Source of the DNA: a virus
IMG/VR virus record: IMGVR_UViG_3300036832_000974
Location: 24,796-88,795 of that record
Reading direction: 5' to 3' (one strand)
Length of the DNA stretch: 64,000 nt
Both the position numbers and the translations under genes were made by a program. Under the pieces are notes generated by a model. That model saw only the letters and a program-made list of their open reading frames with translations. It did no database searches and was not told the origin of the DNA. Within the stretch, counting starts at the first letter, position 1. Each line of letters starts with the position of its first letter. Of this stretch, positions 2 to 33,541 are shown one piece after another.

Positions 2-2683
2 ACGCGTCGTCGGATAGGCGCCGAACGCTCCCGCCCGCGCAGCCAGAACACCTGACCAGTCGGTGGTGCCGTCAACATTGGTGCCGGGCGGGAATGAAGC
101 AGCCCAGTTAACCGTCGCCTGATATGTGTAGCTCACCTGCGCCTGCAGGTCACTGATCTCGATCTTCTGAAAGCTGATCTGCGAGGAGTTGGCCGAAGCG
201 CGCTTCTCGACCGCGTCCATGCGGCCCTTTAGCTCGGCAATGTCACGCGCGATGCCGCCGAGCGTGGTGGTGGTGGTGGCCGCCGCGCCGCTGATACCGA
301 ACAGCGCCTCGTTGATCTTGCCGAGCAGCGCATCCTGATCGATGACGAGGCTGCCGTCGCCGTCGATGACGAGCGGCGCCTTGATCTCGACCGCCAGCGA
401 TCCATCCGGCTCGACCACCAGCGGATTGGCGAGATCAAGGCCGAGCTTTTGCTCGGCCAGGGCGAGCGGTGGCTGCGCCCAGATGATCTGCGCCGGGCCA
501 CGGCCGGGATCGGTGCGGCCGACGAGATTCGGCCCCGGCCAGCACTCCAGCTCGAAGAAGGCGTTGTAGTTGGCGTGGATCGACGGCATCGAGGTCGGAT
601 CATCGCGGTCGACGAGACAGATGACCTCGGGGTTCTGATCGAACGCGAAGAACACCGGCAGCGGGGGCAGGTTTGGCGGCCCACCGAACTCGGGCGAATG
701 CACGGTGAGATTGGCCGACCTGATCCGCTGCACCTGCGTCATCGTCGGCCCGCCAAGGTCCGGCCGGGCGATCAGGATCGACAGCGGGTGAAACACCGGG
801 TTGGTGCCCACCAGCGGGCTTCCCAGAACCGGGCCGACCGTCGGCGCCAACGACTGCGCCGTCATGGCGTACATGAAGCGCGCTTCGAGCGGCCGCCCCA
901 GCACCGGCGACCCCACCGTCAGCGGCTGCGCCGACAGCCCCACCACCCGTTTCATGGCCGGGGTACCAAGCGCGGGCGGCAACACCGCCACGTCGATGGC
1001 GGTCATGCCGTAGACCAGCCGGGCCAGTGCCGGCTGCCCGAGCGCGGGCGGCGCCACCACCTTGTCGAACGCCAGCATGTAGTGGTGCTGCCGCAGCGTC
1101 GGCGCCGTGAAGGTGGGCGGCCCGACCGTCAGCGGGATTGGCGCCACGTAGGGCAGCAGCAGCGATGGCCGGTCAATGACCGGCGGGGCCACCGCGAAGC
1201 CGATGGCAGTAAACTTCGGGGTGACCGTCAGCACCGGTGCAACCGGAGCGATGTCGGGGCGCCCGAGCGAGAGGTCGAAGGCGGTGAGGTGCTGGACCGG
1301 TGCCGTCGACGGTGTGCCGAGCACGGGTGAGCCAACCGAGAACCCGAGCGGCGAGGGAAGGGTCTGCTTTCCGCCTACCCTTGGGCTTCCTATCGCCAGG
1401 GCGGTGGGTGCCAGCGAGATCGCGGTGATGTAGTGGTGCTGGCCTAGCGCCGGGCTATCCAGCGCCGGCGAGGCCGGTATCAGCGGCAGCGGCTCGATCT
1501 GGTCGCCGACCACAAAGCCGGTGACGTCACCAAGCGCCAGGGCCCCGATCGGGGCGTCGGCCGCCGAAGCGAGGGCAGGCGACACCGCCACGACCTCGGG
1601 CGCCGCCACGGCGCCGACCGCGCTGGAACCCATGGCTGGCGAGCCCAGCGCCAGCGACGTCTTCCCCGGGAAGACGGCCGCTCGCCCCATGACCGGGCCG
1701 CCGATGACGGGCTGGCCCGCGGCCACGGGCACCGCCGCCAGGGCTGCCTTGGTGCTCTTGGCCAGCACCGGCACGGCAAAAGCCGGGTGGCCGACCGTCA
1801 ACCCGGGGGTGGCTACAGCATGCCGCTGCCTCAGCGCCGGGGTGCCAATGACGGGCGAGGCCGTCGCCAGCACCGACACCGCCGTCAGCTTGACCGTCGG
1901 CAGCAGCGTCGGACCGCCGAGGACGGGCGGCGGCACGGCAAAGCCGATCGCCGTCATCCCGTAGCGCTGTGCAAACACCGGGGCGCCGAGCCCAAGGGCA
2001 GCGGTTGCAAAAGCGCCAGCGCCCAGCACATCTGGCGCCACCGGCCACCCCACCATGAAGGCGGCCCACGGATTGGTGGCGATGGTGGCGCTGAAGATCT
2101 TCGACGCTGTGGTGGTTGAGGCTAGATTGCCGCCGCGAACGCGCGCAAACCCGGAGTTGGTCGCATCGGTAAACGGCGGCGTCGCGGTCAGGTTGCCGGT
2201 GATCGTGAAGGTGTCGGCGGTCGCCGCCCCAGCGATAGCAGCACCGCCAAGCAGCGCGGTGAGAACATCGGGAATAACTCCCGAGGCCACCGACGGTGTC
2301 GTTCCAGTCCCGGTCGCGTTGACGCTGACCGTCGGCGCCACGTCCTTGACGCCGGTGATGTACGCCGCCGACATCACGCAGCGGCCGCTGGCCTGCTTGT
2401 TATAGGTGAGCGTTGCGCCGGTCAGTGCTGCCGAATTGCGCCGATAGTGAATCTGCGCATAGCCGTTGGCAGTCAGTGCGTTGGGATTGGCCCTGAGCGT
2501 GGCATCGCTGGTATAGTTGCCAGCGTTCACGCCATCGGTAACGGTGCCCGCTACGGCACTGGTGTTTCGCTCATAGATAAAAACAACGATGTGGGCGCCA
2601 GCCGGGACGGTGACGCCAGTGATGGCTAGCGTGGCGCCGCTGTTGTTATTGTTGGTGCCGAGGCTGGTGAAGACAGCGGCCAT
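2..2683 (-). CDS. Long Pro/Ala/Val-rich repeat virion appendage/fibre scaffold protein (>894 aa, runs off the left edge; absent from the ORF track)
   Basis: Manual translation from ATG at 2683 (MAAVFTSLGTNNNNSGATLAITGVTVPAG...) stays open to position 2 (...AFGAYPTTR). N-terminal beta-rich domain, about 18 imperfect 22-24 aa repeats ending in P-x-(L/I/F)-G-x-P, then a coiled-coil-like segment (IARDIAELKGRMDAVEK). Confidence 0.85.
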   Translation of the reverse strand, partial: MAAVFTSLGTNNNNSGATLAITGVTVPAGAHIVVFIYERNTSAVAGTVTDGVNAGNYTSDATLRANPNALTANGYAQIHYRRNSAALTGATLTYNKQASGRCVMSAAYITGVKDVAPTVSVNATGTGTTPSVASGVIPDVLTALLGGAAIAGAATADTFTITGNLTATPPFTDATNSGFARVRGGNLASTTTASKIFSATIATNPWAAFMVGWPVAPDVLGAGAFATAALGLGAPVFAQRYGMTAIGFAVPPPVLGGPTLLPTVKLTAVSVLATASPVIGTPALRQRHAVATPGLTVGHPAFAVPVLAKSTKAALAAVPVAAGQPVIGGPVMGRAAVFPGKTSLALGSPAMGSSAVGAVAAPEVVAVSPALASAADAPIGALALGDVTGFVVGDQIEPLPLIPASPALDSPALGQHHYITAISLAPTALAIGSPRVGGKQTLPSPLGFSVGSPVLGTPSTAPVQHLTAFDLSLGRPDIAPVAPVLTVTPKFTAIGFAVAPPVIDRPSLLLPYVAPIPLTVGPPTFTAPTLRQHHYMLAFDKVVAPPALGQPALARLVYGMTAIDVAVLPPALGTPAMKRVVGLSAQPLTVGSPVLGRPLEARFMYAMTAQSLAPTVGPVLGSPLVGTNPVFHPLSILIARPDLGGPTMTQVQRIRSANLTVHSPEFGGPPNLPPLPVFFAFDQNPEVICLVDRDDPTSMPSIHANYNAFFELECWPGPNLVGRTDPGRGPAQIIWAQPPLALAEQKLGLDLANPLVVEPDGSLAVEIKAPLVIDGDGSLVIDQDALLGKINEALFGISGAAATTTTTLGGIARDIAELKGRMDAVEKRASANSSQISFQKIEISDLQAQVSYTYQATVNWAASFPPGTNVDGTTDWSGVLAARAGAFGAYPTTR

Positions 2684-2702
2684 GTCCCAGGCCCACCCAT
2701 CC

Positions 2703-5333
2703 TCAACGGAACATCATGAAGATGTAATTCGACGGCACCGACAATGTCGTATCAGCCGTAAACACCCCTCCTACCGTGCTTCCAGCAAACGTGTTCGGGG
2801 TTGACGTCGTGTCCACATTCTTGGAGTGGGCCACGAAGATCGATTGTTGAGATGCTGTCTTCGAAAGGCACCAAGGCTGGCCAGCCCCATCGGCTTGCCC
2901 GCCCTGCGAGTGCGTCCCGCAGTACGTTGTATCGAACCCAGCTATGAACGGCTCGGTGTTGTTGTTAACGCAATCGTTCCCAGTCACTGATGCGGTGTCA
3001 GCGCTGATCAGCGTTATGCATAAGCCAGCGGCGTTGGTTATGAAGTTGTTGGATATCTGCAAATTTTTGAACGGGAAACCGGATGGCGAGAACCCGCCAT
3101 CTTGAGTGGTGCCCCACACGAAGATGGCCGCTCCGTTCCACCCCGACGCACCTGCCCCGTTAGAGATAGATAACGGGTCCCAGACATGCGAGAAGTCGCC
3201 GCCTCCTACCCCCACGATTGAATTGTTGCGGACAATGATGTTGCTTGAACCTGAGCCGGCAAGGGTCTCCAGAGACGGAGTGTTGAAACTCCAGCTCATT
3301 TCAATCGGCCCATAATAATTATTGCCAAACACATTGTTCTCGATAAGGACGTTTTCATTGTAAGCAAGAATACGTCCATGGTTGTCATGGAAGCACGAGT
3401 CACGGATGATGACATTCGGAGAAGACAGCCCCGGGAACGCTATCGCCGGAAGCTGTGTGCCGGTAAGCCCAATGTACGGGGTTAGCTCCGGGACTGATGG
3501 ATAGGTCACGGTCCAGGTCCATATGCCAGTCCCCGCATTATACGACTGGGAGAATGATCCGATCGTTCTGCCGATCTCTGCATAGGTGTTCGGATCGATG
3601 AACTTGATCGTGTTGCCGACCCCTGTCGTCATCGGATATTGAAATGTCGTGTCCAGCGTGAAGCCGGTGGTTGACGTAAGAGACGTCAGGTTCTTCACCA
3701 TGAGCCCACGCATCCAGAAATCGTCATCATCTTGGAAACCAAAGTCGCTGTTCTCGATCAGAATGTTTCCGTAATTGAACGCCGAATCGGAATCGCCAAC
3801 GAACGAGACGTAACGCGGCTGCTCCCCAGATGCGAGGGCAGAATCCGGCTTCCGGGTCAGTGCGATATTACTCAGCCTCACATTCGAAGACTGCGAACCA
3901 ACTATGAGCCCGGTTCCTCCACCACCATAGCAGGCAACATTCTCGAACGTGGAGTTGGTCGCGGCCGAGCCGATATCGATGCATCCGGCAGTCTTGACGA
4001 ACAGAACAGCTTCGGTCCCATCCGGCAGATTGAAACCACCTGACAAATTGTAATAGTACAATCCATCCGAGGCGAAGTTGGAATTGAACCCGGTGCCATT
4101 TGGTCCTGTCGCAGTAGGTACAATCCCAACACGAGCGCCACCACGAAAGTCATAGGTGTAGTTGGACAGACGGTAGCCGTCCAATGTCTTGAGCGTAGGC
4201 GGGTTGGTCGGATCGGGAATGTAGTAAGAAGGATTGTTGACCGTGAACCGCTGCGATGAAACAGCTGTCATCACCGTAGGCGTCGATACATTCGTTGATG
4301 GGTTTATTCCATAGGTGAGATTATAGGTCCCCGTTCCGCCGGTCCCCGTTCCCCCGGGATAGATACGAGCCCAGCTGCCAATCGCTCCTGACGCATCATA
4401 GATGTACTGATCGTTGGCAAGCGCGCCGCTCGTCACACTGGACACTGTCAGGATGCCGCTGCCAGCATTAGGCGGCCCACCGGCAGCAATGGTGCCGGTG
4501 AACGTTGCGCCAACCACATTGTGAACAACTCCGGGGATTGCGGCGCGAAAGTCCCGGTCGAACTGAATGTCCCTCACGAGGGTCCGGTTGGTGAGACCGA
4601 CCACAAGTCCCTGAACAGCCCCAATCGTCGACGGCGTCTGATTGAAGAGGACGCGGGTCAGCGGAATGATGTGCCCCTTGGCATCGGTGGTGTGACCAGC
4701 GTCACCGATCAACGAGGTGTCATTGGCGGTCATCATAATGTTGTAATTGAACGTACTGGTGCTCCACGACGGATTGTTCAGATGATAATCGCCAGCAGCG
4801 AGATGCACCGCGGTGCCGGCAACCTTCAGGGCATTGTCTATGTTGGTGAAGTCACTACACCCTACCGCGCCATTGCAGGGCGACAGCATTACCGTTGACG
4901 TGGTGACAGGGACCTGGACCGTGAACGATATCGTGTCACCATTGGCCGCTTCGAATGATTCCGTCCGGTCCACCCCGAGCTTAGGCGCCGGGATTTGCTG
5001 CATCGGCGGACAATTGAATGGCAATGTCATGTCCGAGATCGCGGCACGCATTGGGTTGGTTTGACTCGCGCCATTCACGACCTGATAGACGTAAACCGTA
5101 TTCACGACCGCCGTTGTGTCGGTGAACGTCGCGCCCGCTGTCGTGCCGATCGTAGTGGTGGAACCCGGCACACCGAACGCCGAGCGCTGCACCGTGTTGG
5201 TCCCGGACGGTGACGATCCCCAGGACAATGCAATGTTGGTCCCCGACGGTATTGCTGACAGCGTTCCGAACGACTGCCCGAAAGCGCCGGATGTTGGGAT
5301 GACAAGGCACGCCAGCGCGAGCAGGTGTTTCAT
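2703..5333 (-). CDS. Signal-peptide protein with FN3-like domain and right-handed beta-helix, GH110-like glycosidase/depolymerase
   Basis: GGAGG RBS before ATG 5333. MKHLLALACLVIPTSGAFG-Q signal peptide. FN3-like LSW...FTDTT...YVYQV. NILIENSDFGFQDDDDFWMRG and VIIRDSCFHDNHGRIL...VLIENNVF resemble GH110 beta-helix motifs. Confidence 0.7.
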   Translation of the reverse strand: MKHLLALACLVIPTSGAFGQSFGTLSAIPSGTNIALSWGSSPSGTNTVQRSAFGVPGSTTTIGTTAGATFTDTTAVVNTVYVYQVVNGASQTNPMRAAISDMTLPFNCPPMQQIPAPKLGVDRTESFEAANGDTISFTVQVPVTTSTVMLSPCNGAVGCSDFTNIDNALKVAGTAVHLAAGDYHLNNPSWSTSTFNYNIMMTANDTSLIGDAGHTTDAKGHIIPLTRVLFNQTPSTIGAVQGLVVGLTNRTLVRDIQFDRDFRAAIPGVVHNVVGATFTGTIAAGGPPNAGSGILTVSSVTSGALANDQYIYDASGAIGSWARIYPGGTGTGGTGTYNLTYGINPSTNVSTPTVMTAVSSQRFTVNNPSYYIPDPTNPPTLKTLDGYRLSNYTYDFRGGARVGIVPTATGPNGTGFNSNFASDGLYYYNLSGGFNLPDGTEAVLFVKTAGCIDIGSAATNSTFENVACYGGGGTGLIVGSQSSNVRLSNIALTRKPDSALASGEQPRYVSFVGDSDSAFNYGNILIENSDFGFQDDDDFWMRGLMVKNLTSLTSTTGFTLDTTFQYPMTTGVGNTIKFIDPNTYAEIGRTIGSFSQSYNAGTGIWTWTVTYPSVPELTPYIGLTGTQLPAIAFPGLSSPNVIIRDSCFHDNHGRILAYNENVLIENNVFGNNYYGPIEMSWSFNTPSLETLAGSGSSNIIVRNNSIVGVGGGDFSHVWDPLSISNGAGASGWNGAAIFVWGTTQDGGFSPSGFPFKNLQISNNFITNAAGLCITLISADTASVTGNDCVNNNTEPFIAGFDTTYCGTHSQGGQADGAGQPWCLSKTASQQSIFVAHSKNVDTTSTPNTFAGSTVGGVFTADTTLSVPSNYIFMMFR

Positions 5334-6286
5334 CGGCACACCTCCAGCTTTTCGAGCCGGGATTTCAGCTCCCTTACTGCACCAACCAGCTCGGCGATCA
5401 TCCCAGGTTGCGACCACCCTCTGGGTTTTCCCTCAGTATCATACGCGACCAACCTGGACTCGACGGCTTCAACATCCTCGGCGATCAGCCCGATCTGCTG
5501 ACGATTGGAAACATCATCGTTCCGCACAAACGTCTTGGGCTGCAGCGCAGCGATGCGGTCCAGGGAGCCACCGAGCGGTGCGATGTCGTGCTTGACCCTG
5601 GCGGTCGAGGTGAGACACCCAAGCGTCGCATCGTAAGTGATGGCACCGCTGGTGCCGAAACAAACCGTGCCGAGCTGAGCCGCTGCCGTCTGAGTCATGG
5701 CCGGAACGAAGAGTTGGCCCACAAAATGAGCCGATTGAGAAGTATCTAAGGTCAAAGCCAGATTTGGGCCACCAGTGCCAAAAGCAAGTTGGCCATTACT
5801 ACGGAACGCTAGATCAGTGCCGTATGAGCCAGTAACGAGCGCTCCACCACTTCCTATGTAGCCGAAGGTCCCAAAGGGAGCGTTTGCCATCGAAAAATAG
5901 GTGTCAGCCTGCGGAGACGTCAGCACCAAGACTTGCTGCCATCCGTTCGAAATCACGCTTGGCTGGGTGCTGGACCCACCGACATTGATCCTGTCACCAA
6001 CTCCGAGCCCCTGATCGATGATGACGGCCCCGGTTGTTGGCGACGTCGATGCTGTCCCATTGGTGAAGTGAAACGGCTGCGAGAGATCAAGCGACAGCGT
6101 TGGCGGCGCCGTCCCGGTTACCTGCAAGGGAGACTGCGTAGCCGTTGCCGGACATGGTTGCAGCGCCGCTGGGGTACCTGTCGGATTGCAGAAGATGCTG
6201 AATGGCGGGACCTGACCGGGAAAAGTCTGCGCAGCCGCAGGAATGACGAACAGCGCGAGCAGCGCCGCGAGCAGGGAACGTCTCAT
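5330..6286 (-). CDS. Fibre-like protein with signal peptide and C-terminal intramolecular chaperone (peptidase S74) domain
   Basis: N-terminus MRRSLLAALLALFVIPAAA-Q. C-terminal TSTARVKHDI...IGLIAEDVEAV...LVGAVRELKSRLEKLE is a typical S74 autocleaving chaperone. Confidence 0.8.
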   Translation of the reverse strand: MRRSLLAALLALFVIPAAAQTFPGQVPPFSIFCNPTGTPAALQPCPATATQSPLQVTGTAPPTLSLDLSQPFHFTNGTASTSPTTGAVIIDQGLGVGDRINVGGSSTQPSVISNGWQQVLVLTSPQADTYFSMANAPFGTFGYIGSGGALVTGSYGTDLAFRSNGQLAFGTGGPNLALTLDTSQSAHFVGQLFVPAMTQTAAAQLGTVCFGTSGAITYDATLGCLTSTARVKHDIAPLGGSLDRIAALQPKTFVRNDDVSNRQQIGLIAEDVEAVESRLVAYDTEGKPRGWSQPGMIAELVGAVRELKSRLEKLEVCR

Positions 6287-7644
6287 TGGATGCTCCATCC
6301 AGCGTTCACGCCGTCATTGAAAGGCACGAGCGTGATGGCTGCATAATTGTTGCTGAGGACAAAACTTGGCAGCCCGTCGATAAGGTCCGGCGACGTGGTG
6401 GTGATCGTAATCGGGTGAGCCGCTGCTTGCCCCAAGTCCTTGAACGTCACCGGTCTGCCGGACCGGCTCGACGCCAGCGGCAGCGTGCAAGAAGCAGTCC
6501 CAGCAATGTTGCAGTTGATGATATTGTCGGTTGGGTTGACGACAATCGGTGACGCCGTCACCGCGCGCTGCTTCCTAACACCGAGCACCTGCGTCGCACT
6601 ACCGATCCGAACGTTGATGGCAGCACCGTCATTCCACACGTCGCCATCAACCGGTGACGTCGGCGCCGCACCCGAAGGAATGCTGATCCCCGATCGCGCC
6701 GCCGTGCTTGGCGATGTCCTGACCTGCCCGCCGAACCAGCTTGGCGTATCACCGGCAACGTAGACCCCCCATGAGTTGGTCGGTGCGTTGGGGGCAGGCG
6801 GCGGATCGACATAGACGCCGTACCAGTTCGTGATCGCACCGCCTTGGTTGAATCCAGTAGCAGCATAAAGGCAGCGGGCGTCGTCAATGGTGCCGCTGGC
6901 ATTGAGGTTCTGTATGCCGCCTTGCGTGGCCCACGCCTGAACAATCCTGCCCGCGCCAGTATTGTAAATAGTGCCTATGACTCCGTACGCAGTGAAGACA
7001 ATCCCGGTACCTCCCGGTTGAACCTGACCTTGAAGCGCGGTCAAACCTTGCTGGTAGTTGTAATCGCCTCCGGGATTGATGCCGAAAGATCCACCAGTGA
7101 CACCGGCGTTGCAAACCGTATCAATGTAGGGGACGACGAGAAGATACTGGGCCGTGGTCCAATCTGTAGGATTATAAAGGGCAGACTGCATGTGCAGCCT
7201 GACGGCGGACTGCGGCGCCTGATTGCCAATCGATACAGGCACATCACGAAACCACGTTGGTGCGTGATACACCCAAGCGTCAGGACTCGTGATGTTGTAG
7301 TCGGCGTGGTCGAGCTGGGTGAGCAGATTGGTTCCCGACGACAGGCTAGCAAGATCCTCGGCCAGGAGCACGAGAGCAACCCGGGCATTGCCGGAGAGCG
7401 CGAGCGCGGCGCCGCCGCTGCTCGACCCGAGCGGGCCGCGCGTCAGCGTGGTGCCGCTGCCACCGATGGTGCCGTGGCCGTACTCGTAAGCGGTGCCGTC
7501 AGAGATCGAGTAGGACACCGACGAGCCATCGGGGACCGAAGCCTGCGCGGGCGTGCGCCGCCCCGGAATCGCCGCGCCGACGGTGATGGTGCCGGTGCCG
7601 GTGGTCGGCGTCGAGAACTCGACGAGATTGAACAGTGCTGTCAT
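6283..7644 (-). CDS. Tail fibre/spike protein with shared N-terminal anchor domain
   Basis: 453 aa, beta-rich. First ~100 aa are paralogous to the N-terminus of 7644..13508. APTSPVDGDVW fibre motif. Confidence 0.75.
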   Translation of the reverse strand: MTALFNLVEFSTPTTGTGTITVGAAIPGRRTPAQASVPDGSSVSYSISDGTAYEYGHGTIGGSGTTLTRGPLGSSSGGAALALSGNARVALVLLAEDLASLSSGTNLLTQLDHADYNITSPDAWVYHAPTWFRDVPVSIGNQAPQSAVRLHMQSALYNPTDWTTAQYLLVVPYIDTVCNAGVTGGSFGINPGGDYNYQQGLTALQGQVQPGGTGIVFTAYGVIGTIYNTGAGRIVQAWATQGGIQNLNASGTIDDARCLYAATGFNQGGAITNWYGVYVDPPPAPNAPTNSWGVYVAGDTPSWFGGQVRTSPSTAARSGISIPSGAAPTSPVDGDVWNDGAAINVRIGSATQVLGVRKQRAVTASPIVVNPTDNIINCNIAGTASCTLPLASSRSGRPVTFKDLGQAAAHPITITTTSPDLIDGLPSFVLSNNYAAITLVPFNDGVNAGWSIQ

Positions 7645-10600: not shown

Positions 10601-13508
10601 TTCGCGTGTCAAAGGTCGATGCCATCAATGACGATGATGCACCGCCACCACTGCCCCTGAGCTCGTACGGGAAGATCGGAAACACACCGCTGCATATCGC
10701 TGGCGTGTCGAGCGTGATCGTCCCCGGCGAGCCCACCGCCCCGGCAGTTACGGAAGCGATCCGGGTCCCGTCAGCGATCGGCCATCGCGCGTCGTCGCCC
10801 GCATTGTAGCGCGGCGAGAAGAACGGGTCGCCCGCCGCGTAGTAGGTGGCAAGCTCGCCGCCGTTGCCGTCGCCAAGATTGACGTTAGTGACGCTGGTGC
10901 TGCCCTTCTCGAAGGTGCCGAAGAACAGCTTGAGCGGGATCACCGCGCCGGTCTTGACGAGGACAGTGTATCCCGACAGCGCGAGATCGGTGTTCGCGTT
11001 GGAAAGGAAGTTGTAGGCGTCAGAGCCGTAGCCACCCACCGTCCTGATGTTGTTCTGCTGCTGGGTCGTGATGACATAGTGATTGTCTGCACCGGTCGGG
11101 CCAGCCACAGCGGTGACGACAAAGCTCGTGCCGGTATTGATATGGTAGAGAATGTCGCCGACATCGATCCGGTACATCGCACCGACCGAAGTCTGATAGG
11201 CGCCGAAATAGCCGAACGTCATCACGTCACCAGCGTAGGATGGAGCTACTGGCGTCGCGCCGCTGTCAGTCATCGCGATGAGCGCTTCCGACGGCACCGT
11301 GATCTGCCACTCGCGACCCTGGCTGTCGACGTAACGCTTGACATATTGGGACATCGGCGTCCGAAAACCGGTCGCAATAGAAACTTCGTCCTTGTTGAAG
11401 AACTGAACGCTTCCGCCATCCGCGGGATAATAGCTTGATCGCATCGCCTCACTGGCGTGGGAGACGTCATTAAAGTTGGCATAGTTGCCAATGGTGCTGT
11501 TGAAGCGGCCACCGCCCAACAGCATGCCACCGCAGTAGTTGATGGCCTGCCTCAAGGCTGGCGTTGAAAAATTCTGCGTCGCCCCGTACTGCAAGCCACC
11601 GCGGAACGACAGCGCCGCGCCTTGGGCAGCGAGAGTTGAGATGCGGGAATGGCCAACCCAAGTCGTGCCGATGAAAGTGATCGAAGTGTAGGAAGTGGAC
11701 GTGAGGATCGATGGTGGTATGAAATTCTGCACGCCATCCTGAAGATCGATCAGCCCACCGGTGAAGACGACGCTGCTACCTACCGGTGAGCCAGCCATTA
11801 ACGTGCCAAGACGGACCGTCGACTCGCAGTAGAGCTGGTTGATCACCAGCGGACCGGAAGACATTCCGATATCGAAAATCTGATAGGAAGCGCCGCCCGA
11901 GCAGTTGTCGATCGGCCCACCAAGGATACCGTTCGCGACACCGAAATGGGTGTTAGTTAGGAAGGTGTGACTCACATTGAAATTGTTGTTGCGTAGCTCG
12001 ACGTTGCGCGACTGCGTGTGGCACACCGCGATGTGATAGACGTTCCCCCACAGATTGTTGTTGCGGATGCGGGTGAAGTCGGCGTTGCCGTCGGCGTTGG
12101 GCTTGACGCAGATGCCGACGCCGAAGCCCTCGATGCTGCATTCTTCGATCGTCACGTCAGACGACGCCCCGTCACCATACTGCGTGGTTCGTCCCGTCCA
12201 TGCAGGGTAGATGCGGTCAGGGTAGTGGTCGGTCGGCTGAGACCCGCAGTAGGCGTCGATGGTCACGCCAGCGTAGGGCGAGTGCTGCTGCAGTCCGCCG
12301 GGATTTGATCCCGACGGCGTCAATCCCGGCGCCAGCCAATCGTCGCGATTCGGCGAGAGCGGATACGGGACGAGACCTGTTTGGGTCTGAGTAGCCCACA
12401 GGAAATTTCTGCCCTTGATGCGGAAGCCGCGAAGCAGCCCCATCCGCATGCCCATGAAATTGATGCAGGGCCGATCGGTCTTCGACGGGATCAGCAGGGT
12501 GCCACCGCCAACGTAGCTGCCACGTAAATTGGCAGCAACCAGTTGCAGTGAAGTGAGACCATTCCAGCCGAGATGGATAGTCTCATCGAGCCTGAACGGC
12601 CCATCTGGCACTCTCACCACGTTGTGGTAATTCTGCAGCGCGAAGTCGACGGCAGCCTGCAGCATCGGCGCATTATCGGTGCCGGTCACTGTATCGCGCC
12701 AGCACAAGAACTTCAGGTTAGTGCCAGCCGGAACGGCGCGCGAGACCGTGATGCTGGTGTTGGTGACAACGCTGACAACGGTGGCGTCGGTCGCCATCGC
12801 GTTGGCACCCATGCTCGCCCAGTTGAAGTTGCCGATGTGCATGCCGGACACCACACCGGTGGTGTCCGAAGTGGTTATCACCGTGGTGCCGTTAGCCGTC
12901 GCCGTGATGATGCCAACACCCCAGTCCATCGTCTGGGCGCCGTCCGGCACCATGCCGAACTCACCGGCGTTGACCGGACTGGTCGAGTACATCGGCGCGA
13001 ACAGCTGCCCGCCGACCGTGACCTCGCCGTACAGCCCGAGCGTCGATGCCACCGGCTTGAAGCTTAGTGGCACTGCCTCTTGGTATGCCGGCGGCGGCCA
13101 CGTCCCCATCATGTTGCGGATGCGGACCTCGGTGACATTGGCCGGAATGGTGCCTGACGCCAGAAAGTCGGCCTTGGTGTTGAACGCCATCACCGACGAC
13201 GACAGGCTGGTGAGATCCTCGGCGAGCAGCACGAACGCCACCCGCGCGGCACCTGAGAGCACGATCGCTGCGTTGCTGTTGCTGGACCCGATCGGGCCCC
13301 GCGTCATCACCGTGCCACCGCTGCCAATGATGCCGCGCCCGTACTCGTAGTTCGATCCGTCGATGATGGAATAGGAAACCTCGGTGCCGTCAGCGACGCC
13401 AGCTTGCGACGGCGTCCGCTTGCCGGTGAGCGGCAGCCCAACGGTGAGCGAACCGGTGCCCGTCGTTGGCGTACTGAACTGAACCAGATCGACGAATGCG
13501 GACATCAT
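7644..13508 (-). CDS. Giant tailspike/depolymerase, two tandem pectin-lyase-like beta-helices
   Basis: 1954 aa. Two helix-entry motifs (TDNAPMLQAAVD...VRVPDG and ADQSTDDSATLNAAL...LLLPP), tailspike SGYRTVGDGGGANY motif, N-terminal anchor domain. Confidence 0.8.
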   Translation of the reverse strand: MMSAFVDLVQFSTPTTGTGSLTVGLPLTGKRTPSQAGVADGTEVSYSIIDGSNYEYGRGIIGSGGTVMTRGPIGSSNSNAAIVLSGAARVAFVLLAEDLTSLSSSVMAFNTKADFLASGTIPANVTEVRIRNMMGTWPPPAYQEAVPLSFKPVASTLGLYGEVTVGGQLFAPMYSTSPVNAGEFGMVPDGAQTMDWGVGIITATANGTTVITTSDTTGVVSGMHIGNFNWASMGANAMATDATVVSVVTNTSITVSRAVPAGTNLKFLCWRDTVTGTDNAPMLQAAVDFALQNYHNVVRVPDGPFRLDETIHLGWNGLTSLQLVAANLRGSYVGGGTLLIPSKTDRPCINFMGMRMGLLRGFRIKGRNFLWATQTQTGLVPYPLSPNRDDWLAPGLTPSGSNPGGLQQHSPYAGVTIDAYCGSQPTDHYPDRIYPAWTGRTTQYGDGASSDVTIEECSIEGFGVGICVKPNADGNADFTRIRNNNLWGNVYHIAVCHTQSRNVELRNNNFNVSHTFLTNTHFGVANGILGGPIDNCSGGASYQIFDIGMSSGPLVINQLYCESTVRLGTLMAGSPVGSSVVFTGGLIDLQDGVQNFIPPSILTSTSYTSITFIGTTWVGHSRISTLAAQGAALSFRGGLQYGATQNFSTPALRQAINYCGGMLLGGGRFNSTIGNYANFNDVSHASEAMRSSYYPADGGSVQFFNKDEVSIATGFRTPMSQYVKRYVDSQGREWQITVPSEALIAMTDSGATPVAPSYAGDVMTFGYFGAYQTSVGAMYRIDVGDILYHINTGTSFVVTAVAGPTGADNHYVITTQQQNNIRTVGGYGSDAYNFLSNANTDLALSGYTVLVKTGAVIPLKLFFGTFEKGSTSVTNVNLGDGNGGELATYYAAGDPFFSPRYNAGDDARWPIADGTRIASVTAGAVGSPGTITLDTPAICSGVFPIFPYELRGSGGGASSSLMASTFDTRTVAMAANIAPSLNAIHTSGYRTVGDGGGANYKRVSSINPSKAPYSFTSADGAHWEYIPEAIGWNAKVAGVYADQSTDDSATLNAALLPFQDPGTILNGGSLTATLLLPPSVMMLKHPVILCGNNGISIKILGQSQSASGGTVSSCFAWQGSGYPSMFIIYGANQIIIEAVNFVSIGMDYTTFSDLVNTVHITADNTMNNFGAIHLAAAVTAGTNRTFTCDMMINDHPWTSPGVQPGASVGVGLGTAAFEIVYVKAIVSQYAFVADCVNDHAVGEKVGGGTPCNNITFNRCVFATGVLAHNSTAVLCGNQIQQTVQAAQIIFDSCEVLGGIKNATVTIAAGNPLVVTDTAHGLTMGRAVKIDDANSGLTYYAIPIDADHYHLALPVYNFQFPTITDAFATLMPNASPGVVHWPGHGLAANTPVVFQTDGSLPSTIVGGPLYSTDITHGNNYYVSATGLATDTFQVSATPGGASINFTGTQYGNHKVFAGKVPLVGTTRSGTTVRSIKGHSGFRTIVGGNIKNFFIFNTVFGHLDYGFDGDPVSGSCELFFPSFAGDTLSDIRANGASNIHITSAETESCGMFLTAVGGAGQINATLVQNSYQCTMPADGVVIQWPGNLTMINNVFMNGARDACFLENPAVGMSPKIVCTDISSLNSHPVIPITASISTTGGVSTLNVTAVAAGFPGFGPTWQIRFYRSPGSGNSMETAQISNYGTGSGGVGTYTLDRDMGTVSSKGMTVVQILGAQEPGGVTSIGNSFANTGGTQGVPVYYDGSMNPYDPNDEFPTSTFPHSKWAVQQINDYGDTGKIPTSFGALQTLSTGLGQNVQGSGLIAHSQGILTDGVTSITIPFTSINSAGVTTVDISLGAIPMRSKITGIVADVARVFTGAGTCTMQVGTTSGGTDLLKAFDCTTVVRGGTKGNVKGIADADYGVNLAKATMPTADGFCPGWDGPTGTMQMSVRFIGATALTGLTDGSVTIYISTRRYH

Positions 13509-15466
13509 CCCTCCAGCGCGGCCGACACCGCGTCAATCACCGCTGGCCAGTCGCGGAAACGCGGCTGCCGGAAGATCTTCATTCGCGGATACCAGATCGT
13601 GGTTTCGCCGCTGAGCCCCCACCGGAAGTCAGGATCGTAGGAAAGCAACAGCCACGTCGGCACGCCGAGCGCTCCGGCAAGATGCGCAATCACGGTGTCG
13701 ACGGTGATGACGAGATCAAGCGCCTTGATCGCCGCCGCGGTGGTGGCGAAGCTTTCAAACTGCCCGGTGTTCTCCAGCGAGAAAAACGGCCCGTGCTTCT
13801 TGACCAGTGGCGCCAGCAGCTTCTGCGGAATGTCGCGGGTGTAGGGCCGCTCGCTGGTGGCGCTGCCGACGCCGCACAGCCCGATCCTCGCCTCGTTCAT
13901 CGGGTGGCGACCGAACGCAAACGAATGGTTGCCCTGGCCGCGCCAGTTGTCGACCAGCATCGGATCGACCTTGAGATAGGGCGCATCAATCCGAATGAGA
14001 TCCTCGTCGGCATCAAGCACGCTCGGCACCGACGGCAACGGCAGGTGGAAACCATAGCGCGGCAGCGATCGCCGCAGCCGGTGGATTGCGTACTGCGGCA
14101 GGCCGAGCAGACCGCGCGAATCCTCGAACAGCTCGTAAAGCTCGGGCTGCACCTCAAGAACAGCGTTCGGCGCACGCTGCAACACGTAGCGCATGAACCG
14201 CGCAAACATGATGGTATCGCCATAGCCCTGTTCCGACCAGATCAGCACCGGCGCTTGCGTCGGCGTGCCGTCCCACGGCGGGCAATCGTGCACGCGGTTT
14301 GCCCCGATCAGATGCGGATGCGGCTGGCCACTGCGCAGCTCGTAGCCCTTCCAGCCCTGCCGCCAGCGACCAGCTTGCAGATCGTGCAACGCTCGCACGT
14401 GCAGGGTCGGCTTGTGCTCTGGATTGATCCGCAGATTGGTCTCGATCAGCGCCGCCGCCTTGTCGGTGCGCTGCATCAGCTGCTCGTAATGCGCCACCAG
14501 CAGCCGCGACATCAGGTCGTTCGGATCGCGCTCGATCACCCGGCTGAACCGGGCGATTTCGCGGTCGAACATCTGATCGTCCTGGCGGATGTCCGCGACC
14601 TCATCGAGATTGTTGACGCTCCACGGCTTGCCGTCACTAGCGCCCTCCTCGGGAACGCACAGCATCATGATCGACATCAGCACGCCGAAGATGTTGCGCT
14701 TCTCGCCGCGGAAGTTGCCGGGATTGAAGTGATACGGCCGGTGCCAATACATGCGATAGCCGTACTCGACCAGCTGCGCGATCAGCGCTTCGGACAGGTC
14801 CGGATCCTCGTTCTCGATGTAGATGATCGGCCGGCAGCGCTTGATGGTCTGCTCGGCGCCGCGCAGCACCTGCAGCTCATGGCGATCGACATCGATCTTG
14901 ATGAACTGCAGCCGCTGCAGGCCGAGGCTGTCGATCGTCATGCAGTTGATTTCAAAATCGCCAGTGTTGATCTCAGGGCGGCAGTAGGCGTGCAACGCGT
15001 CCTGCTTTGACACCTTGATGGTGCCGGTATGGTCGCTCGCCGCACACGGGATCACCCGCGCCTGCCGCAGATTGTTGTTGGCGAGGTTCGACATCAGCAG
15101 CGGCACGTTGGTCGGCGACGCCTCGAATGCAATCACTTGCCCGGTCCATCCGACCAGCTTCGCCATCGGCACCGTGAATGCGCCGATGTTGGCGCCGACG
15201 TCGATGGCAACATGGCCGGGCCGCAAGCACTTCTTGAAGACGACGACCTCGCCCTCAGAGTATTCGCCATAGGTCGCCAGCGAGAGCCCGACCAGCTCGT
15301 CCTCGTCATAGATCGAGAAGGTGCCGTGGCGGGCCTCGATCTTGCGCGGGGAGAAGAACGTGGTCGGCAGTGGCTCGGGCTTCTGTCCCGGCCCTGGCAA
15401 CACCCCCATGGTGGGGATATCGAACACCGCGCCGCCGTTGACATACTCGACCTGTGGTTCCGACAT
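13505..15466 (-). CDS. FkbM-family methyltransferase fused to TPR and GT-B (GT9-like) glycosyltransferase
   Basis: IDVGANIG, FEAS, FIKIDVD...LRGA...RPIIYIE (FkbM). LIWSEQGYGDTIMFARF and LDLVITVDTVIAHLAGALGVPTW...DFRW...WYP (TPR-GT9-like). Confidence 0.9.
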   Translation of the reverse strand: MSEPQVEYVNGGAVFDIPTMGVLPGPGQKPEPLPTTFFSPRKIEARHGTFSIYDEDELVGLSLATYGEYSEGEVVVFKKCLRPGHVAIDVGANIGAFTVPMAKLVGWTGQVIAFEASPTNVPLLMSNLANNNLRQARVIPCAASDHTGTIKVSKQDALHAYCRPEINTGDFEINCMTIDSLGLQRLQFIKIDVDRHELQVLRGAEQTIKRCRPIIYIENEDPDLSEALIAQLVEYGYRMYWHRPYHFNPGNFRGEKRNIFGVLMSIMMLCVPEEGASDGKPWSVNNLDEVADIRQDDQMFDREIARFSRVIERDPNDLMSRLLVAHYEQLMQRTDKAAALIETNLRINPEHKPTLHVRALHDLQAGRWRQGWKGYELRSGQPHPHLIGANRVHDCPPWDGTPTQAPVLIWSEQGYGDTIMFARFMRYVLQRAPNAVLEVQPELYELFEDSRGLLGLPQYAIHRLRRSLPRYGFHLPLPSVPSVLDADEDLIRIDAPYLKVDPMLVDNWRGQGNHSFAFGRHPMNEARIGLCGVGSATSERPYTRDIPQKLLAPLVKKHGPFFSLENTGQFESFATTAAAIKALDLVITVDTVIAHLAGALGVPTWLLLSYDPDFRWGLSGETTIWYPRMKIFRQPRFRDWPAVIDAVSAALEG

Positions 15467-15487
15467 ATGACCTTGTCCCTGACGCAC

Positions 15488-22411: not shown

Positions 22412-22491
22412 TGCCTTGCTCCTGATAGATTGCGAAATAGCTCGACGCACGGTCAGACGACCGTTTCATCGACGTTGGTGATGCGGGGTGG

Positions 22492-25822: not shown

Positions 25823-26497
25823 TTACAGATGGAAGGCTGCGATATTGGCCCGACCAAGCTTGATCGCGCTCAGAACTGGCGTGAAGGTGACGGCGCTTGC
25901 CACGGCATTGACCCGGCTCCCCGCCGTGAACGGCAGAACATTCGTCGATGTGCCGGTGACGAAGCCGTCGTCTTCCCATGCCGGATCGCAAGTCGGCGTC
26001 GTCACGTTTGACGGCCCTGCCCAGAACGCAAAGAACAGCCGTCCCGGACCGCTCGGCGTGCCCGACGTGATCGTCGGTGCGACCGTGCCCGAGTTGGCGG
26101 CCGTGGCATAAGCCGCCGCGTCGTAGGGCGATGGCGCAGCACCCGCGGCCCACATGCCGCCAGCGCTCATGATGGACGTAGAGCCAGAGCGCGCCGTGGC
26201 GGTGATTGTCCCACCCACCAGAAGATTGGTGATCCGCGACCAGAAGATGCTACAGCCGCCCGCGCTGTTGTCCGTCCATCCGGTGTTATTCCAGGTATTG
26301 CCGGATGTATCTGATACGACACCCATCGCCGAGGTGGCGCTCTGGTCAGCGACGCCGATCGCAACCAGTGCTCCTACCGGAATGATGAGGCCGGAGAACA
26401 CCACGGAGCCAGTGCTGTGACGCGCCGAGAGCGCGGTGCGAGGTCCCCATGCCTGCGCGCCGCCGATGAAGCCGCGCGCCGCGGGTAGGATGATCAC
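25823..26497 (-). CDS. Fibre-associated beta-sandwich protein
   Basis: GTG 26497 overlaps the TGA of 26494..27867. Resembles the N-terminal domain of ORF 2..2683. Confidence 0.65.
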   Translation of the reverse strand: MIILPAARGFIGGAQAWGPRTALSARHSTGSVVFSGLIIPVGALVAIGVADQSATSAMGVVSDTSGNTWNNTGWTDNSAGGCSIFWSRITNLLVGGTITATARSGSTSIMSAGGMWAAGAAPSPYDAAAYATAANSGTVAPTITSGTPSGPGRLFFAFWAGPSNVTTPTCDPAWEDDGFVTGTSTNVLPFTAGSRVNAVASAVTFTPVLSAIKLGRANIAAFHL

Positions 26498-28058: not shown

Positions 28059-28072
28059 TCAGCTTTCCTCCT

Positions 28073-30547: not shown

Positions 30548-30559
30548 CGAGATGATCTC

Positions 30560-32215
30560 CTAATCGTTGATGTACTGACCGACGGTGTAGTTGCCGTCGA
30601 CCGGCAGGCTGTCGTTGGTAGAGATGACGCGCTTCACCTTGGTGTCGATGCCAACGGTATCGCGCACCGCCATCGACGCGGTGACAGCGCGGCGCAGCTT
30701 CTGAATTGTCTTGGTGTCAGGCGCGCGCAGAAAACCGCGCAGGTAGCCGGTGGTGTTCAAAAACCATGGGCGCCATGGCCTGAACATCTGGATCTTAAGC
30801 TCGGCGCTGTAGCGCTTGATCCCGAACCGCGCCACGCCCATGAAGGTGTAGCCCTTGCGATAGTCAGGCGCGCGATTGCGATCGAGGATGTACCAGCGCT
30901 CATAGATGAACTGCCACGCCGTTGAGGTCGGTAGAAATTTGCGGGTGAGATAATTCGGATTGCCCGGCGGTACCGGCAGCGTGTCGGGCGCGTTCGAACT
31001 GAGGAACTGCTTGGCGGGCCGCTTCGCCGCGTACAGCTTGCGCTTCGACATCGGATGAACTTCTGAAACATATTCGGGCTGCAGATTGATCAGCTCGCCG
31101 CCCGGCACGAGGGTCTGGTAAATCGCCTTCGCCTGCGAAAGATCGAGGCGGCCATCACGCGGGATACGAACCAAGCGCGCTTCGGTGCCATCATCGGCGC
31201 CAAGGAAGATGCCGTGCTTGTTGCTCGCCAGCGGATGGTCCTTGGGCAGCGGCCACTTGCCTTCCTCGCCCATGTAGTAGTGATTGTTCAGCCGCGCGGG
31301 CAGCATCACCTCGTCGTAAGTGGTGGCGCCGTACTTGGTGTTCAGGTCAGTGACGGTGCGAAACGTCAGCGGTGTCTCGATGCCGCGATCCCACAGTGTC
31401 GCGGTGCGGGTGAACTTGCCGCCAGCGGTCTGGCTGGTCGGATAGAACTTGCGGGTCGGCCCGGTGAAGCTGCCGTTCTTGGTGAACTTCTTGACCGTGT
31501 CTGGCGGCAGACCACTGATGAATTTAGCCGGATAGCACAGCCACGGCAGCTTCACCCGCTCAACAAACGGATAGAGCCGCAGCTGCGGAAACCGCGCCAC
31601 GTACGCCGCGCGCTCGTCGTTGGAGTAGCTCTTGGTCGGAAAGAACTTCGCGGGCGGCACGATCGCCTTGACGACCTTGCCGCCGACCGCCTCGACGAAC
31701 CGCTTGGTGCCGAGCAGGCTGCCGCGCTGCGATTTCAGTTCCCACTGGTTGGCGGTCCACCAGCGCCGAAACGTCTCGTCCCAGTCGTCTTCCCACAGGT
31801 TGACGCCCATCGCCCACGCCAGATAGGGCAGGTTGGCGTAGCGGATCGCGTACGGATCCCACTGGTCGCGAATGATCTCGGCATAGGTGACGGTGAGCCG
31901 GTAGGCGTCGACGTCTGCCAGTGCCTTCTCCAGGCCCGTGGCTTGGCGGTACAGCACGTCTTCGCCCGCGGTGACCAGAATGCCGGGCGTGATCGGATCG
32001 GCTTGCTGGAGCAGCGGCACGCCGAACACGGGGCGTCCTGCGGCCACCCCGAGGGCGAACAGATCGCGGGTCGGCCCGGTCGGCCTGCCGAACTCCGGCT
32101 TGTCGACCGCAAAGCCCTGCGCCCGCAGACTAACGGTGACGCCATACGCTGGATCAGGCGAAACGAACGGCCCGCCAATGGCGGCGCCGCCACCGAGGAA
32201 ATCACGACCAAGCAT
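30560..32215 (-). CDS. Baseplate/tail protein I (P2 gpI-like) with N- and C-terminal extensions
   Basis: WDP...LPYLAWAMGVNLWEDDWDE...RGSLLG. Confidence 0.88.
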   Translation of the reverse strand: MLGRDFLGGGAAIGGPFVSPDPAYGVTVSLRAQGFAVDKPEFGRPTGPTRDLFALGVAAGRPVFGVPLLQQADPITPGILVTAGEDVLYRQATGLEKALADVDAYRLTVTYAEIIRDQWDPYAIRYANLPYLAWAMGVNLWEDDWDETFRRWWTANQWELKSQRGSLLGTKRFVEAVGGKVVKAIVPPAKFFPTKSYSNDERAAYVARFPQLRLYPFVERVKLPWLCYPAKFISGLPPDTVKKFTKNGSFTGPTRKFYPTSQTAGGKFTRTATLWDRGIETPLTFRTVTDLNTKYGATTYDEVMLPARLNNHYYMGEEGKWPLPKDHPLASNKHGIFLGADDGTEARLVRIPRDGRLDLSQAKAIYQTLVPGGELINLQPEYVSEVHPMSKRKLYAAKRPAKQFLSSNAPDTLPVPPGNPNYLTRKFLPTSTAWQFIYERWYILDRNRAPDYRKGYTFMGVARFGIKRYSAELKIQMFRPWRPWFLNTTGYLRGFLRAPDTKTIQKLRRAVTASMAVRDTVGIDTKVKRVISTNDSLPVDGNYTVGQYIND

Positions 32216-32218
32216 GGA

Positions 32219-33541
32219 TCAGCCGATGACCCAGGCCGAAGCGGTGCGATAGACCGGCACGAAGTTGGTGCCGCCGCCGACCACCGTGGTGCCGAACGTG
32301 GTCACCGTGGCATCGGTGACGAATGCCCGTGTGCCAGCGCTGGCCGTGGGAAGGTTCGCCACCGTCACCCCCGCCATAAGCGACGCCACGATAGCGCTCG
32401 GGGCAATGATTCGACTACCGCTAGGGAGAGTCCCACCGGCATTATCGAGGATGGAGCCGGTGGAAACACTGTAGGCGGGGCCGTTGATGGTCCCAGTGAA
32501 GCTGCTGAAGAGCAAGAACAATGCGCCATCGGAGAGGAGTATGAAGGCAGTATTATAAGTCGGGTTGCCTACGATGGTGATGGCAGCTTGACAGTTGATC
32601 TCCCCGAATCCAGACCCAGAGGCAAATGCATACTGACCTGCCGCTCCGGGCGTCATAGTCATGTTGCCATTCAGCACAATTTGCGCTCCTACCGCCGTGG
32701 CCTGAAACCCGGTTGCGTGGTTGGCGAGCGTTCCCAGGATGACGTGGCCGCCGTACTTTCCGACGTTGACCTTGCACTCAGAAACCACAGATACATAGCC
32801 ACCCCAGGCAACCGTGGGAGACACCAGCGTCACTTCAGCAATGGTGATTGGTGAGAGTATAGGTATGCCGCCAAAATAGAAGCAAAGCCCCCAGCCAAGA
32901 CTGGCAGCGCCTTCGGCGTCAGCGTCGATGACCACTTTCGTTGCGTCAGCGGAATTGCCAAGGATGAAGATGTTGCCAGACCCGATCGGAGTCACCCACA
33001 CGGTGCTCCATTGGTCACCTGACATGACAACCGGCCCGTAGTGCGCCGTCGCGTCCTGAAGCTGGACGGTGATGTCGAAGCCATTCAAGTCGTATGAGCA
33101 CAGGGTGTTCCAGGCTTTCGCCATCGTCTTGAACGGAGCGGTACTGGTGCCAGCGTTGCTGTCGTTGCCGGTATCGGCATTGACGTAGATCGTCAGCGCT
33201 GCCTGCAGCAACGGCCGCGACGGCGCGGACGGCGGTGGTGCAAAGTCTTCCGCTAGCGCGTCGATCATCACCGTCGGCGGCGCCGAGAAGTTCACCTTGG
33301 CGTTGGCGGCCGACGACATCAGCACAGTGGTGCGAGCGAATACCGGCCCGGTGCTCGAATAGGTGCCGCGGCCGATCTCCCACTGCGAATTGTCGTTCGA
33401 TCGAGCGTTGTAGCTGTACACCCCGCCGGTTACTGCGCCCGACTGCGCTGGCGTCAGTGACCCAACCTTCGCCGCCGCGATGCCGAAATCTCCGGTGCCG
33501 CCCGCAACCGCAGCGAACGCGACGTTGTTGAGAAGACTCAT
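32219..33541 (-). CDS. Fibre/spike protein with anchor domain, inserted between J and I
   Basis: N-terminal anchor (WEIGRGTY...RTTVLMSS...ALAEDF), IYVNADTGNDSNAG...PFKT motif, spike-type C-terminus (VANLP...AFVTDA...WVIG). Confidence 0.75.
   Translation of the reverse strand: MSLLNNVAFAAVAGGTGDFGIAAAKVGSLTPAQSGAVTGGVYSYNARSNDNSQWEIGRGTYSSTGPVFARTTVLMSSAANAKVNFSAPPTVMIDALAEDFAPPPSAPSRPLLQAALTIYVNADTGNDSNAGTSTAPFKTMAKAWNTLCSYDLNGFDITVQLQDATAHYGPVVMSGDQWSTVWVTPIGSGNIFILGNSADATKVVIDADAEGAASLGWGLCFYFGGIPILSPITIAEVTLVSPTVAWGGYVSVVSECKVNVGKYGGHVILGTLANHATGFQATAVGAQIVLNGNMTMTPGAAGQYAFASGSGFGEINCQAAITIVGNPTYNTAFILLSDGALFLLFSSFTGTINGPAYSVSTGSILDNAGGTLPSGSRIIAPSAIVASLMAGVTVANLPTASAGTRAFVTDATVTTFGTTVVGGGTNFVPVYRTASAWVIG

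Follow-up and report, generated by a model that had tools for sequence, protein, structure and literature searches.

Introduction

Chain-like fibres are bacteriophage appendages in which dimers of a small protein are carried on a protein rope. To our knowledge, they are represented by a handful of structures described since 2023, and what they do, and how they relate to host recognition, has yet to be settled. Here, we focus on a putative fibre system of this kind encoded in a stretch of 64,000 nucleotides (nt) of viral DNA, termed the window, which spans bases 24,796–88,795 of the IMG/VR record IMGVR_UViG_3300036832_000974. The system comprises a small 'bead' protein of 124 amino acids (aa), a repeat-bearing 'rope' found both in a free-standing 966-aa protein and on the baseplate wedge protein gpI, and three proteins that share an N-terminal 'anchor' domain. 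Taken together, these elements suggest that the phage probably hangs beads-on-a-rope fibres from its baseplate, tipped with interchangeable host-binding proteins. The kind of fibre is known from the literature; what is new is the fusion of the rope to gpI (2 to ~35 units), the widespread triad of bead, anchor and rope genes, and a conserved peptide at the start of the rope.

Several variants of this architecture have been described. In Bas63, whisker dimers wrap as 'beads on a string' around a rope at the N-terminus of the collar protein, two dimers per rope, and the rope completes the incomplete sandwiches of the whiskers, while in GP4 a separate rope protein carries five dimers (PMC12609058). 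In A1002, 11 dimers attach by beta-augmentation to the nozzle-rope protein gp39, on its fiber-dock domain, and GP4's fibre docks onto the capsid (PMC13730344). Phage 7-7-1 carries small homodimeric garland proteins at its baseplate, for which no rope is identified (PMC12796354). The length of rope that serves one dimer is similar in two of these systems: the fiber-dock ranges given for A1002 (PMC13730344) sum, by our own addition, to 268 residues, or ~24 aa per dimer, and the collar protein gp30 of Sf14 has ~45 residues before its globular part for two dimers, or ~22 aa per dimer. The neck fibre of cyanophage A-1(L) was considered as a further comparison and set aside, since it follows a different, trimer-on-trimer design.

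The bead protein

The 124-aa protein belongs to a family of uniform size, with more than 200 close homologues of 117–130 aa, most of them 124–128 aa. Its AlphaFold2 (AF2) model is confident (predicted local distance difference test, pLDDT, 93.7) and consists of a helix at residues 2–18 followed by beta strands. Three significant matches were returned when Foldseek was run against the PDB, all of them phage proteins: the Bas63 connector, the Sf14 neck and the 7-7-1 tail fibers. Structures were also compared by VIA-align Z scores, on which unrelated rows lie at ~Z 7. The bead scores Z 10.9 against the Sf14 neck chain 9c39_K (root-mean-square deviation (rmsd) 2.7 Å, 107 of 108 residues aligned), Z 10.5 against the whisker chain 9mt4_K of the Bas63 connector (rmsd 2.8 Å, 106 of 107) and Z 8.3 against the 139-aa chain 9rkv_A of the 7-7-1 tail fibers (rmsd 3.0 Å, 119 of 139), and all three values exceed those of the unrelated rows; against GP4 Fiber I (8jou_a) it scores Z 6.0 (rmsd 2.8 Å, 94 of 136). 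As modelled, the 124-aa protein is thus a bead with the fold of chain-like-fibre subunits. The likeness is one of structure: neither the bead nor a profile of its family found anything significant among PDB sequences, the bead had no match in PHROGs, and the Gp80 family PF23140 gave sub-threshold matches to six of 14 family members (best E 4e-4).

The rope repeats

The 966-aa protein is divided into an N-terminal globular domain (aa 1–215), a repeat array, a middle region with one long predicted helix (aa 808–832) and three C-terminal units at residues 900–960, which fall outside the window and bring the total to ~22 units. Autocorrelation over residues 240–670 peaks at 23 aa (z 7.8), and the protein has 24 copies of the motif P-x-h-[GDTAI]-x-[PSA], against a mean of 5.9 and a maximum of 14 in 1000 shuffles. 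A first-pass annotation of this DNA had counted about 18 repeats of a 16-aa unit in the open reading frame (ORF) at 2–2683; the count stands close to the ~19 units of the array, while the unit gives way to a period of 23–24 aa. The array contains no tandem repeat at the DNA level, so the copies are old, and since the repeats are invisible in the DNA, it is the peptide motif itself that is being kept. The protein has no match in Pfam or PHROGs, and its AF2 model has a pLDDT of 31 throughout, including the globular N-terminal domain. A rope candidate of the GP4-like phage NK-7 likewise found nothing significant among PDB sequences. Base composition sets the rope gene apart, with 70% G+C in window positions 1–2000 compared with 57–63% in the rest of the module. 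The globular domain has a weak counterpart elsewhere in the window: the ORF at 25823–26665 on the minus strand, which overlaps the end of the gene for a 457-aa fibre-like protein, resembles it in its C-terminal half (22% identity, E 0.001).

The second rope lies on gpI, which is recognized by its Tail_P2_I domain (PF09684; 51.4 bits, gathering cutoff 20.6, E 1.4e-13). The first-pass annotation had placed two matching units on the N-terminal extension of this protein, and comparison with related phages upholds this. A hidden Markov model (HMM) of the repeat, trained on the relatives, scores one of the two units (15.6 bits), and both align with the last two units of a 16-unit array in the gpI proteins of L002–L005. 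In the close relatives gpI is 845–848 aa long, and its first ~315 residues form 14 near-regular units of 23 aa (for example NLQAQGLTVGSPVLGAPTVGVTS) and two degenerate ones, the latter being those kept in this phage; the neighbouring genes of the close relatives are 70–86% identical to those found here. A more extreme case is the 1386-aa gpI of P0010, where an extension of ~880 aa combines the same units with inserted globular parts. Among the relatives, gpI has 16 to ~35 such units at the corresponding site, ahead of the gpI domain, and this shows that the two units of this phage are homologous to the rope repeats. Their position before the Tail_P2_I domain leaves the N-terminal end of the rope free. 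The genes for J and I are adjacent in L002–L006, and in this phage they are split by the gene for the third anchor-domain protein. Since the relatives have longer arrays and no insert between J and I, comparison of the sequences indicates that the gpI repeats are ancestral, and that this phage has a shortened gpI rope, ahead of which the 440-aa gene has been inserted.

The anchor domain

Exactly three copies of the anchor domain are present in the genome. Over residues 1–103, identity between the 453-aa and the 1954-aa protein is 66% (E 5e-37), and the 440-aa protein is ~34% identical to each of them (over ~99 residues and with E 6e-8 in the case of the 453-aa protein). Beyond this N-terminal domain nothing aligns among the three, in keeping with the first-pass description of a shared ~100-aa domain joined to unrelated distal parts. 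A profile of the three copies matches 15,219 representative proteins at E ≤ 1e-3 and 5,324 at E ≤ 1e-10. The 150 top proteins are 104 to 1679 aa long, and in 147 of them the best match begins within residues 1–6; the domains behind the anchor vary, with pectate-lyase-like, BclA_C-like, YadA-head and beta-propeller types among them. Neither the domain nor its profile found a relative in Pfam, PHROG or the PDB, and a profile–profile comparison indicates that it is unrelated to the bead (probability 1.5%). The N-terminus of the tail fibre of NK-7 looks similar by eye; the anchor HMM matched neither it nor the other NK-7 proteins, and this candidate was rejected.

The third anchor-domain protein stands apart from the other two. 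It is closest to the subfamily typified by locus L022 (55% identity to L022), and no close relative of it was found in two collections, of viral and of metagenome contigs. Among GenBank phage proteins there was no close relative of it, nor of the anchor domain of the 453-aa protein. Its gene is absent between J and I in L002–L006. Relative G004 showed no anchor domain, but its contig stops short of the place where an anchor gene would be expected.

Co-occurrence of bead, anchor and rope genes

The first-pass annotation had proposed co-occurrence across phage genomes as a check on the link between the three elements, and the elements are indeed found together in many unrelated phages. In a prophage of Thalassovita litoralis (L015), a bead gene, an anchor-domain gene, two small genes and a rope gene lie within 3.3 kilobases (kb). 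The bead of this prophage is 120 aa long and 41% identical to the 124-aa protein (E 2e-25), its anchor-domain protein has 208 aa, and its 446-aa rope is built of the same 23-aa units. The association extends to a wider sample of loci, which were fetched by similarity to the anchor and so have high anchor identity by construction. A Gp80-like gene lies just upstream of 72 of 78 anchor genes of the L015 type, and 29 of these loci have a protein of period 20–24 aa downstream; for anchors of the L022 type the upstream gene is present in 55 of 66 cases, and 41 loci have a downstream periodic protein, with a period of mostly 20–21 aa. Each bead cluster is paired with one rope period: in 13 of 13 loci with beads of 120–126 aa the period is 23 aa, and in the other clusters it is 20 or 22 aa. 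Nearer to this phage, the 64-kb relative G004 combines a 16-unit gpI with a bead gene after gpD, and bead homologues are listed on contigs equal in size to those of P0004, P0006 and P0010. Judged by its distribution, the anchor domain is a generic adaptor, one that accompanies bead and rope genes in a large number of phages. Two loci fetched via P0008 (L012 and L013) were rejected as cases of co-occurrence, as they share only the N-terminal domain of P0008, without such repeats.

Two kinds of neighbouring gene recur at these loci. Conserved genes for proteins of ~190 aa that end in ...DD.WWP lie between the anchor and rope genes (L015:11016-11579 and L014:11694-12284) and look like tail-fibre assembly chaperones. 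In the viral contigs L162, L168 and L175, genes for periodic proteins of 640–1048 aa (period 20–21, z 33–45) adjoin anchor-domain genes, and these proteins may be much longer ropes.

Peptides at the start of the rope

Free-standing ropes begin with a conserved peptide that differs between the two types of anchor sampled. Those next to L015-type anchors start with MLGFSPLASAPLADDG, and those next to L022-type anchors with MSLLGFDAxGRLALGQ, the rope of L022 itself having the N-terminus MSLLGFDAIGRLALGQ. This 16-mer is 73% identical between loci in which the beads are 27% and the rope bodies 23% identical. The N-terminus is the free end of the rope in its fusions to collar, nozzle and gpI, and the peptide should therefore meet a conserved partner at the tip of the fibre, with the anchor domain as the natural candidate. 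In this phage gpI starts MLGRDFLGGGAAIGG, while gpI of the relatives that lack the third anchor gene starts MSDFSRADF.... Scored against a position-specific scoring matrix (PSSM) of the L022-type rope start, the gpI start ranks in the top 0.25% of 3614 ORF N-termini. The first-pass annotation had also likened an internal segment of the 966-aa protein, AADAPIGALALGD, to the start of gpI; this similarity does not rise above shuffles. Both peptide HMMs missed the segment, and the PSSM scan of the 966-aa protein was no better than shuffled sequence.

A proposed beaded fibre and its alternatives

In the proposed fibre, bead dimers would grip a rope made of one extended chain, each 23-aa unit taking one dimer, and a strand of the rope would complete the bead beta-sandwich as in the solved chain-like fibres. 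Two such ropes would be present: the two-unit N-terminal extension of gpI and the free-standing 966-aa protein with its ~22 units. By analogy with P2-type baseplates, each virion would have six gpI ropes bearing two bead dimers each, and the number of repeats would set the length of the fibre, as the 16 to ~35 units on gpI of the relatives suggest. The first-pass annotation had proposed a small subunit polymerizing along the repeats, with repeat number setting filament length. The bead fold, the agreement of the 23-aa period with the ~22–24 aa per solved dimer, and the co-occurrence of the genes support placing the subunit along the repeats; the polymerization does not carry over, as the beads would be dimers on a single-chain rope. 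By analogy with the solved fibres, we consider it likely that beads bind along the rope repeats in this phage. The three anchor-domain proteins would be the receptor-binding or depolymerase parts of the system, and the anchor domain would most likely clip onto the free N-terminal peptide of a rope, the third anchor-domain protein doing so on the N-terminus of gpI. Such plug-and-socket docking, which the first-pass annotation had placed on short Gly/hydrophobic peptides, is put forward tentatively, as a plausible reading that falls somewhat short of probable. The branched fibre network suggested earlier is not indicated by anything found in the analysis.

The repeats could be read in other ways. 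They might fold by themselves into a single-chain beta-solenoid or stalk, each turn taking ~23 residues, that simply keeps gpI and the 966-aa protein at a distance from the particle, the bead being an unrelated decoration such as a neck whisker or a garland of the 7-7-1 kind. A period of 22–23 residues is indeed typical of beta-helix turns, and the contact between bead and repeats is drawn by analogy; in addition, 7-7-1 has a homodimeric garland at its baseplate for which no rope is identified (PMC12796354). We nevertheless judge a solenoid improbable, because bead subfamily and rope period pair one-to-one, the bead and the same 23-aa repeats occur together again in an unrelated prophage (L015), and solved ropes use 22–24 aa per dimer; AF2 gave no confident solenoid either, though the model is uninformative overall. 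Far less credible is the view that these are ordinary modular tail fibres, with three functionally unconnected elements and repeats that are a low-complexity Pro/Gly/Ala linker arising from G+C-rich DNA. Modular fibre N-termini are common, and the repeat gene does reach 70% G+C against 57–63% around it, yet the motif is kept across copies that are no longer alike at the DNA level and in proteins of unrelated genomes, and the three elements co-occur far beyond chance. A stronger competitor concerns the anchor alone, which might join the receptor-binding proteins directly to baseplate proteins of the conventional kind or to bead dimers. The rope peptide would then serve a different partner, for example an assembly chaperone, or a contact at the capsid or the neck. 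The gene most tightly linked to the anchor gene is the bead gene directly upstream, the rope peptide of this phage is weakly similar (gpI) or absent (anchor-domain proteins 1 and 2), and the GP4 fibre docks onto the capsid (PMC13730344). Set against this, the type of rope start differs between the two anchor subfamilies and is kept where beads and rope bodies diverge, the N-terminus of gpI is necessarily a free end, and the third anchor gene is inserted exactly before the one gpI that starts MLG, relatives without the gene starting differently. Direct attachment of the anchor is rather unlikely on balance.

The beaded-rope model has results weighing against it as well. The 124-aa protein of the window has no Pfam match even at E 10 and does not reach the threshold of PF23140; lacking a Pfam match of its own, it is filed as a structural relative of that family and not as a member. 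A sequence search of the PDB with the rope repeats matched no solved rope, the chains of which may be short or modelled without sequence, and the AF2 model of the 966-aa protein speaks neither for an unfolded rope nor against a beta-solenoid that folds by itself. The sampled loci are partly kin, so that their co-variation may equal shared descent and amounts to consistency, not proof of co-evolution. As to docking, the PSSM score of the gpI start is negative in absolute terms, peptide HMMs of both rope-start types missed the gpI start when run over the phage proteome, and no rope in this phage has a peptide of the type that matches anchor-domain proteins 1 and 2.

If the fibre is as proposed, it is a baseplate-borne version of the chain-like design, with a rope on a P2-type gpI and natural length variants of 2 to ~35 units. 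The common three-gene module of bead, adaptor-domain receptor-binding protein and rope ties chain-like fibres to typical receptor-binding and depolymerase domains, and the N-terminus of the rope together with the anchor domain makes a concrete candidate pair of peptide and domain. Should this pair prove true, it would provide a simple rule for which receptor-binding protein sits on which fibre, and for swapping them in the laboratory, and it would give a name to a domain family that spans more than 15,000 protein clusters and is without annotation today. A bolder generalization, which we hold to be rather doubtful, is that the anchor works as a socket of general use: in thousands of phages it would attach exchangeable receptor-binding proteins to the conserved, free N-terminal peptide of ropes covered with beads, and in this family the rope would have been grafted onto gpI. 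In that case chain-like fibres would be modular, length-adjustable carriers of host-range determinants, and binding of a receptor at the end of a beaded tether could be passed directly to the trigger for contraction.

Genomic context

A single record of 88,795 base pairs represents this uncultured phage; it has direct terminal repeats and a completeness rating of 100%. The window covers the tail half of the genome, and no close relative by DNA was found among GenBank phages. All genes of interest are on the minus strand (table 1). The genome encodes Baseplate_J, Tail_P2_I, two tube FII proteins, a tail assembly chaperone (TAC), a tape measure protein (TMP), GpU and tail X, and by this gene content the tail is of the P2-type contractile kind. 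The tail module begins with a 204-aa ORF, which is gpW-like by position only (no Pfam match), followed by Baseplate_J, the 440-aa gene and gpI, the last two being immediate neighbours as the first-pass annotation had them. Next are two fibre-like proteins of 824 and 457 aa, both kept in the relatives. The sheath position is taken by an ORF of 636 aa, assigned from its place and size and without a Pfam match, and after it come the two tube FII paralogues, the chaperone, the tape measure protein, GpU, tail X and, in the place of gpD, an ORF of 438 aa that has no Pfam match either. After this gene lies a second, accessory fibre operon, and the 124-aa gene stands at its head, which agrees with its earlier placement at the start of the module. 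It is followed by the FkbM/GT9-like fusion, the 1954-aa and 453-aa proteins, the S74-chaperone fibre, the beta-helix protein and the repeat protein.

Table 1. Features of the putative fibre system and neighbouring genes, in window coordinates.
Feature	Position	Strand	Remarks
Bead protein, 124 aa	15541..15915	-	First gene after gpD; modelled N-terminal helix and beta-sandwich (whisker / Fiber-I fold)
Free-standing rope protein, 966 aa	1..2683 in window, full -217..2683	-	Gene runs 217 nt past window start
Array of ~19 units of 23–24 aa (aa 243–670)	674..1957	-	Core LTVGSPVLG.P, often then Q.H
Baseplate wedge protein gpI, 551 aa	30560..32215	-	Tail_P2_I domain aa 91–181; phrog_34934
Two rope units on gpI N-terminal extension (aa 31–75)	31991..32125	-	Units 22 aa apart
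gpI N-terminal peptide MLGRDFLGGGAAIGGP	32168..32215	-	Candidate anchor docking peptide, weak; only such start in genome
Anchor-domain protein 1, 453 aa	6283..7644	-	Anchor domain 7336–7644
Anchor-domain protein 2, 1954 aa	7644..13508	-	Anchor domain 13197–13508
Anchor-domain protein 3, 440 aa	32219..33541	-	Inserted between gpJ and gpI; anchor domain aa 1–100, 33242–33541
Baseplate J-like protein	33538..34551	-	Gene end overlaps anchor gene 3 start by 4 nt
FkbM methyltransferase and GT9-like fusion	13505..15487	-	Between bead gene and anchor genes; 85% identity in relative G004
Two fibre-like genes without anchor domain	2703..6298	-	Same operon; 904 aa (weak beta-helix match) and 322 aa (Peptidase_S74 chaperone domain)

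Several further features of the neighbouring genes are recorded here. The N-terminus of the FkbM/GT9-like fusion bears the conserved peptide GGAVFDIP(T/S)MGV(L/V)PGPGQK, although the HMM of the rope repeat gave this protein no score. In relative G004 a gene for a 265-aa Cys-rich protein (L177:6578-7375), not present in this phage, lies between the bead and methyltransferase genes. The 904-aa beta-helix-like protein and the 322-aa S74 fibre have hydrophobic N-termini that resemble signal peptides, which is odd for virion proteins. The two tail-tube FII paralogues (21821–22998, minus strand) are adjacent, 168 and 209 aa long and 60% identical, and both match PF04985. The tape measure protein (18181–21342, minus strand) includes a CHAP peptidase domain near its C-terminus (aa 845–930) and a long Gly-rich tract.

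Comparison with known chain-like fibres and P2-type baseplates

The best structural match of the bead is found in the collar–whisker system of the Ounavirinae (Bas63 gp5 and collar rope, 9MT4; Sf14 gp31/gp30, 9C39; PMC12609058). Like this phage, Bas63 and Sf14 are contractile-tailed, and their rope extends a virion protein at its N-terminus and holds two dimers, the same number as the units on gpI. Unlike the rope of Bas63 and Sf14, which belongs to the neck collar, the rope here is on gpI and on a separate 966-aa protein; the bead sequences are ~16% identical, and no anchor-domain receptor-binding proteins are described for these phages. The garland of the Agrobacterium myophages 7-7-1 and Milano (gp014 homodimers; 9RKV; PMC12796354) is comparable in that small homodimers sit at the baseplate of a contractile phage of alphaproteobacteria. 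The bead is 23% identical to 9rkv_A, chain A being presumed to be the garland protein, and no rope is identified in 7-7-1.

Two podophages offer parallels for the ropes. Fiber I of the Ralstonia phage GP4 (gp80 dimers and the fibre–tail adaptor gp77; 8JOU; PF23140, PF23148) has a free-standing rope, to which the 966-aa protein may be compared. In GP4, unlike here, the fibre runs from the tail adaptor to the capsid of a podophage and carries five dimers, a gp77-like adaptor was not found in this phage, and the GP4-type repeat motif differs from the one described here, with a period of ~20 in the NK-7 homologue. In the Pseudomonas phage A1002 (gp40/gp41 dimers on gp39; PMC13730344) the rope is fused to a tail structural protein and has a free N-terminal end, as on gpI, and the number of docking sites sets the length of the fibre; its fusion partner is a podophage nozzle and it has two bead proteins, in contrast to the one bead protein of this phage. 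The fusion partner found here is itself a familiar protein. Like wedge proteins of the P2 gpI and Mu gp48 type (PF09684), it has a central domain that scores above the Pfam threshold, and its gene lies downstream of gpJ in a P2-like order. Unlike P2 gpI, it carries an N-terminal rope extension of 85 aa, which reaches ~880 aa in relatives, along with ~370 extra C-terminal residues and an extra gene between J and I.

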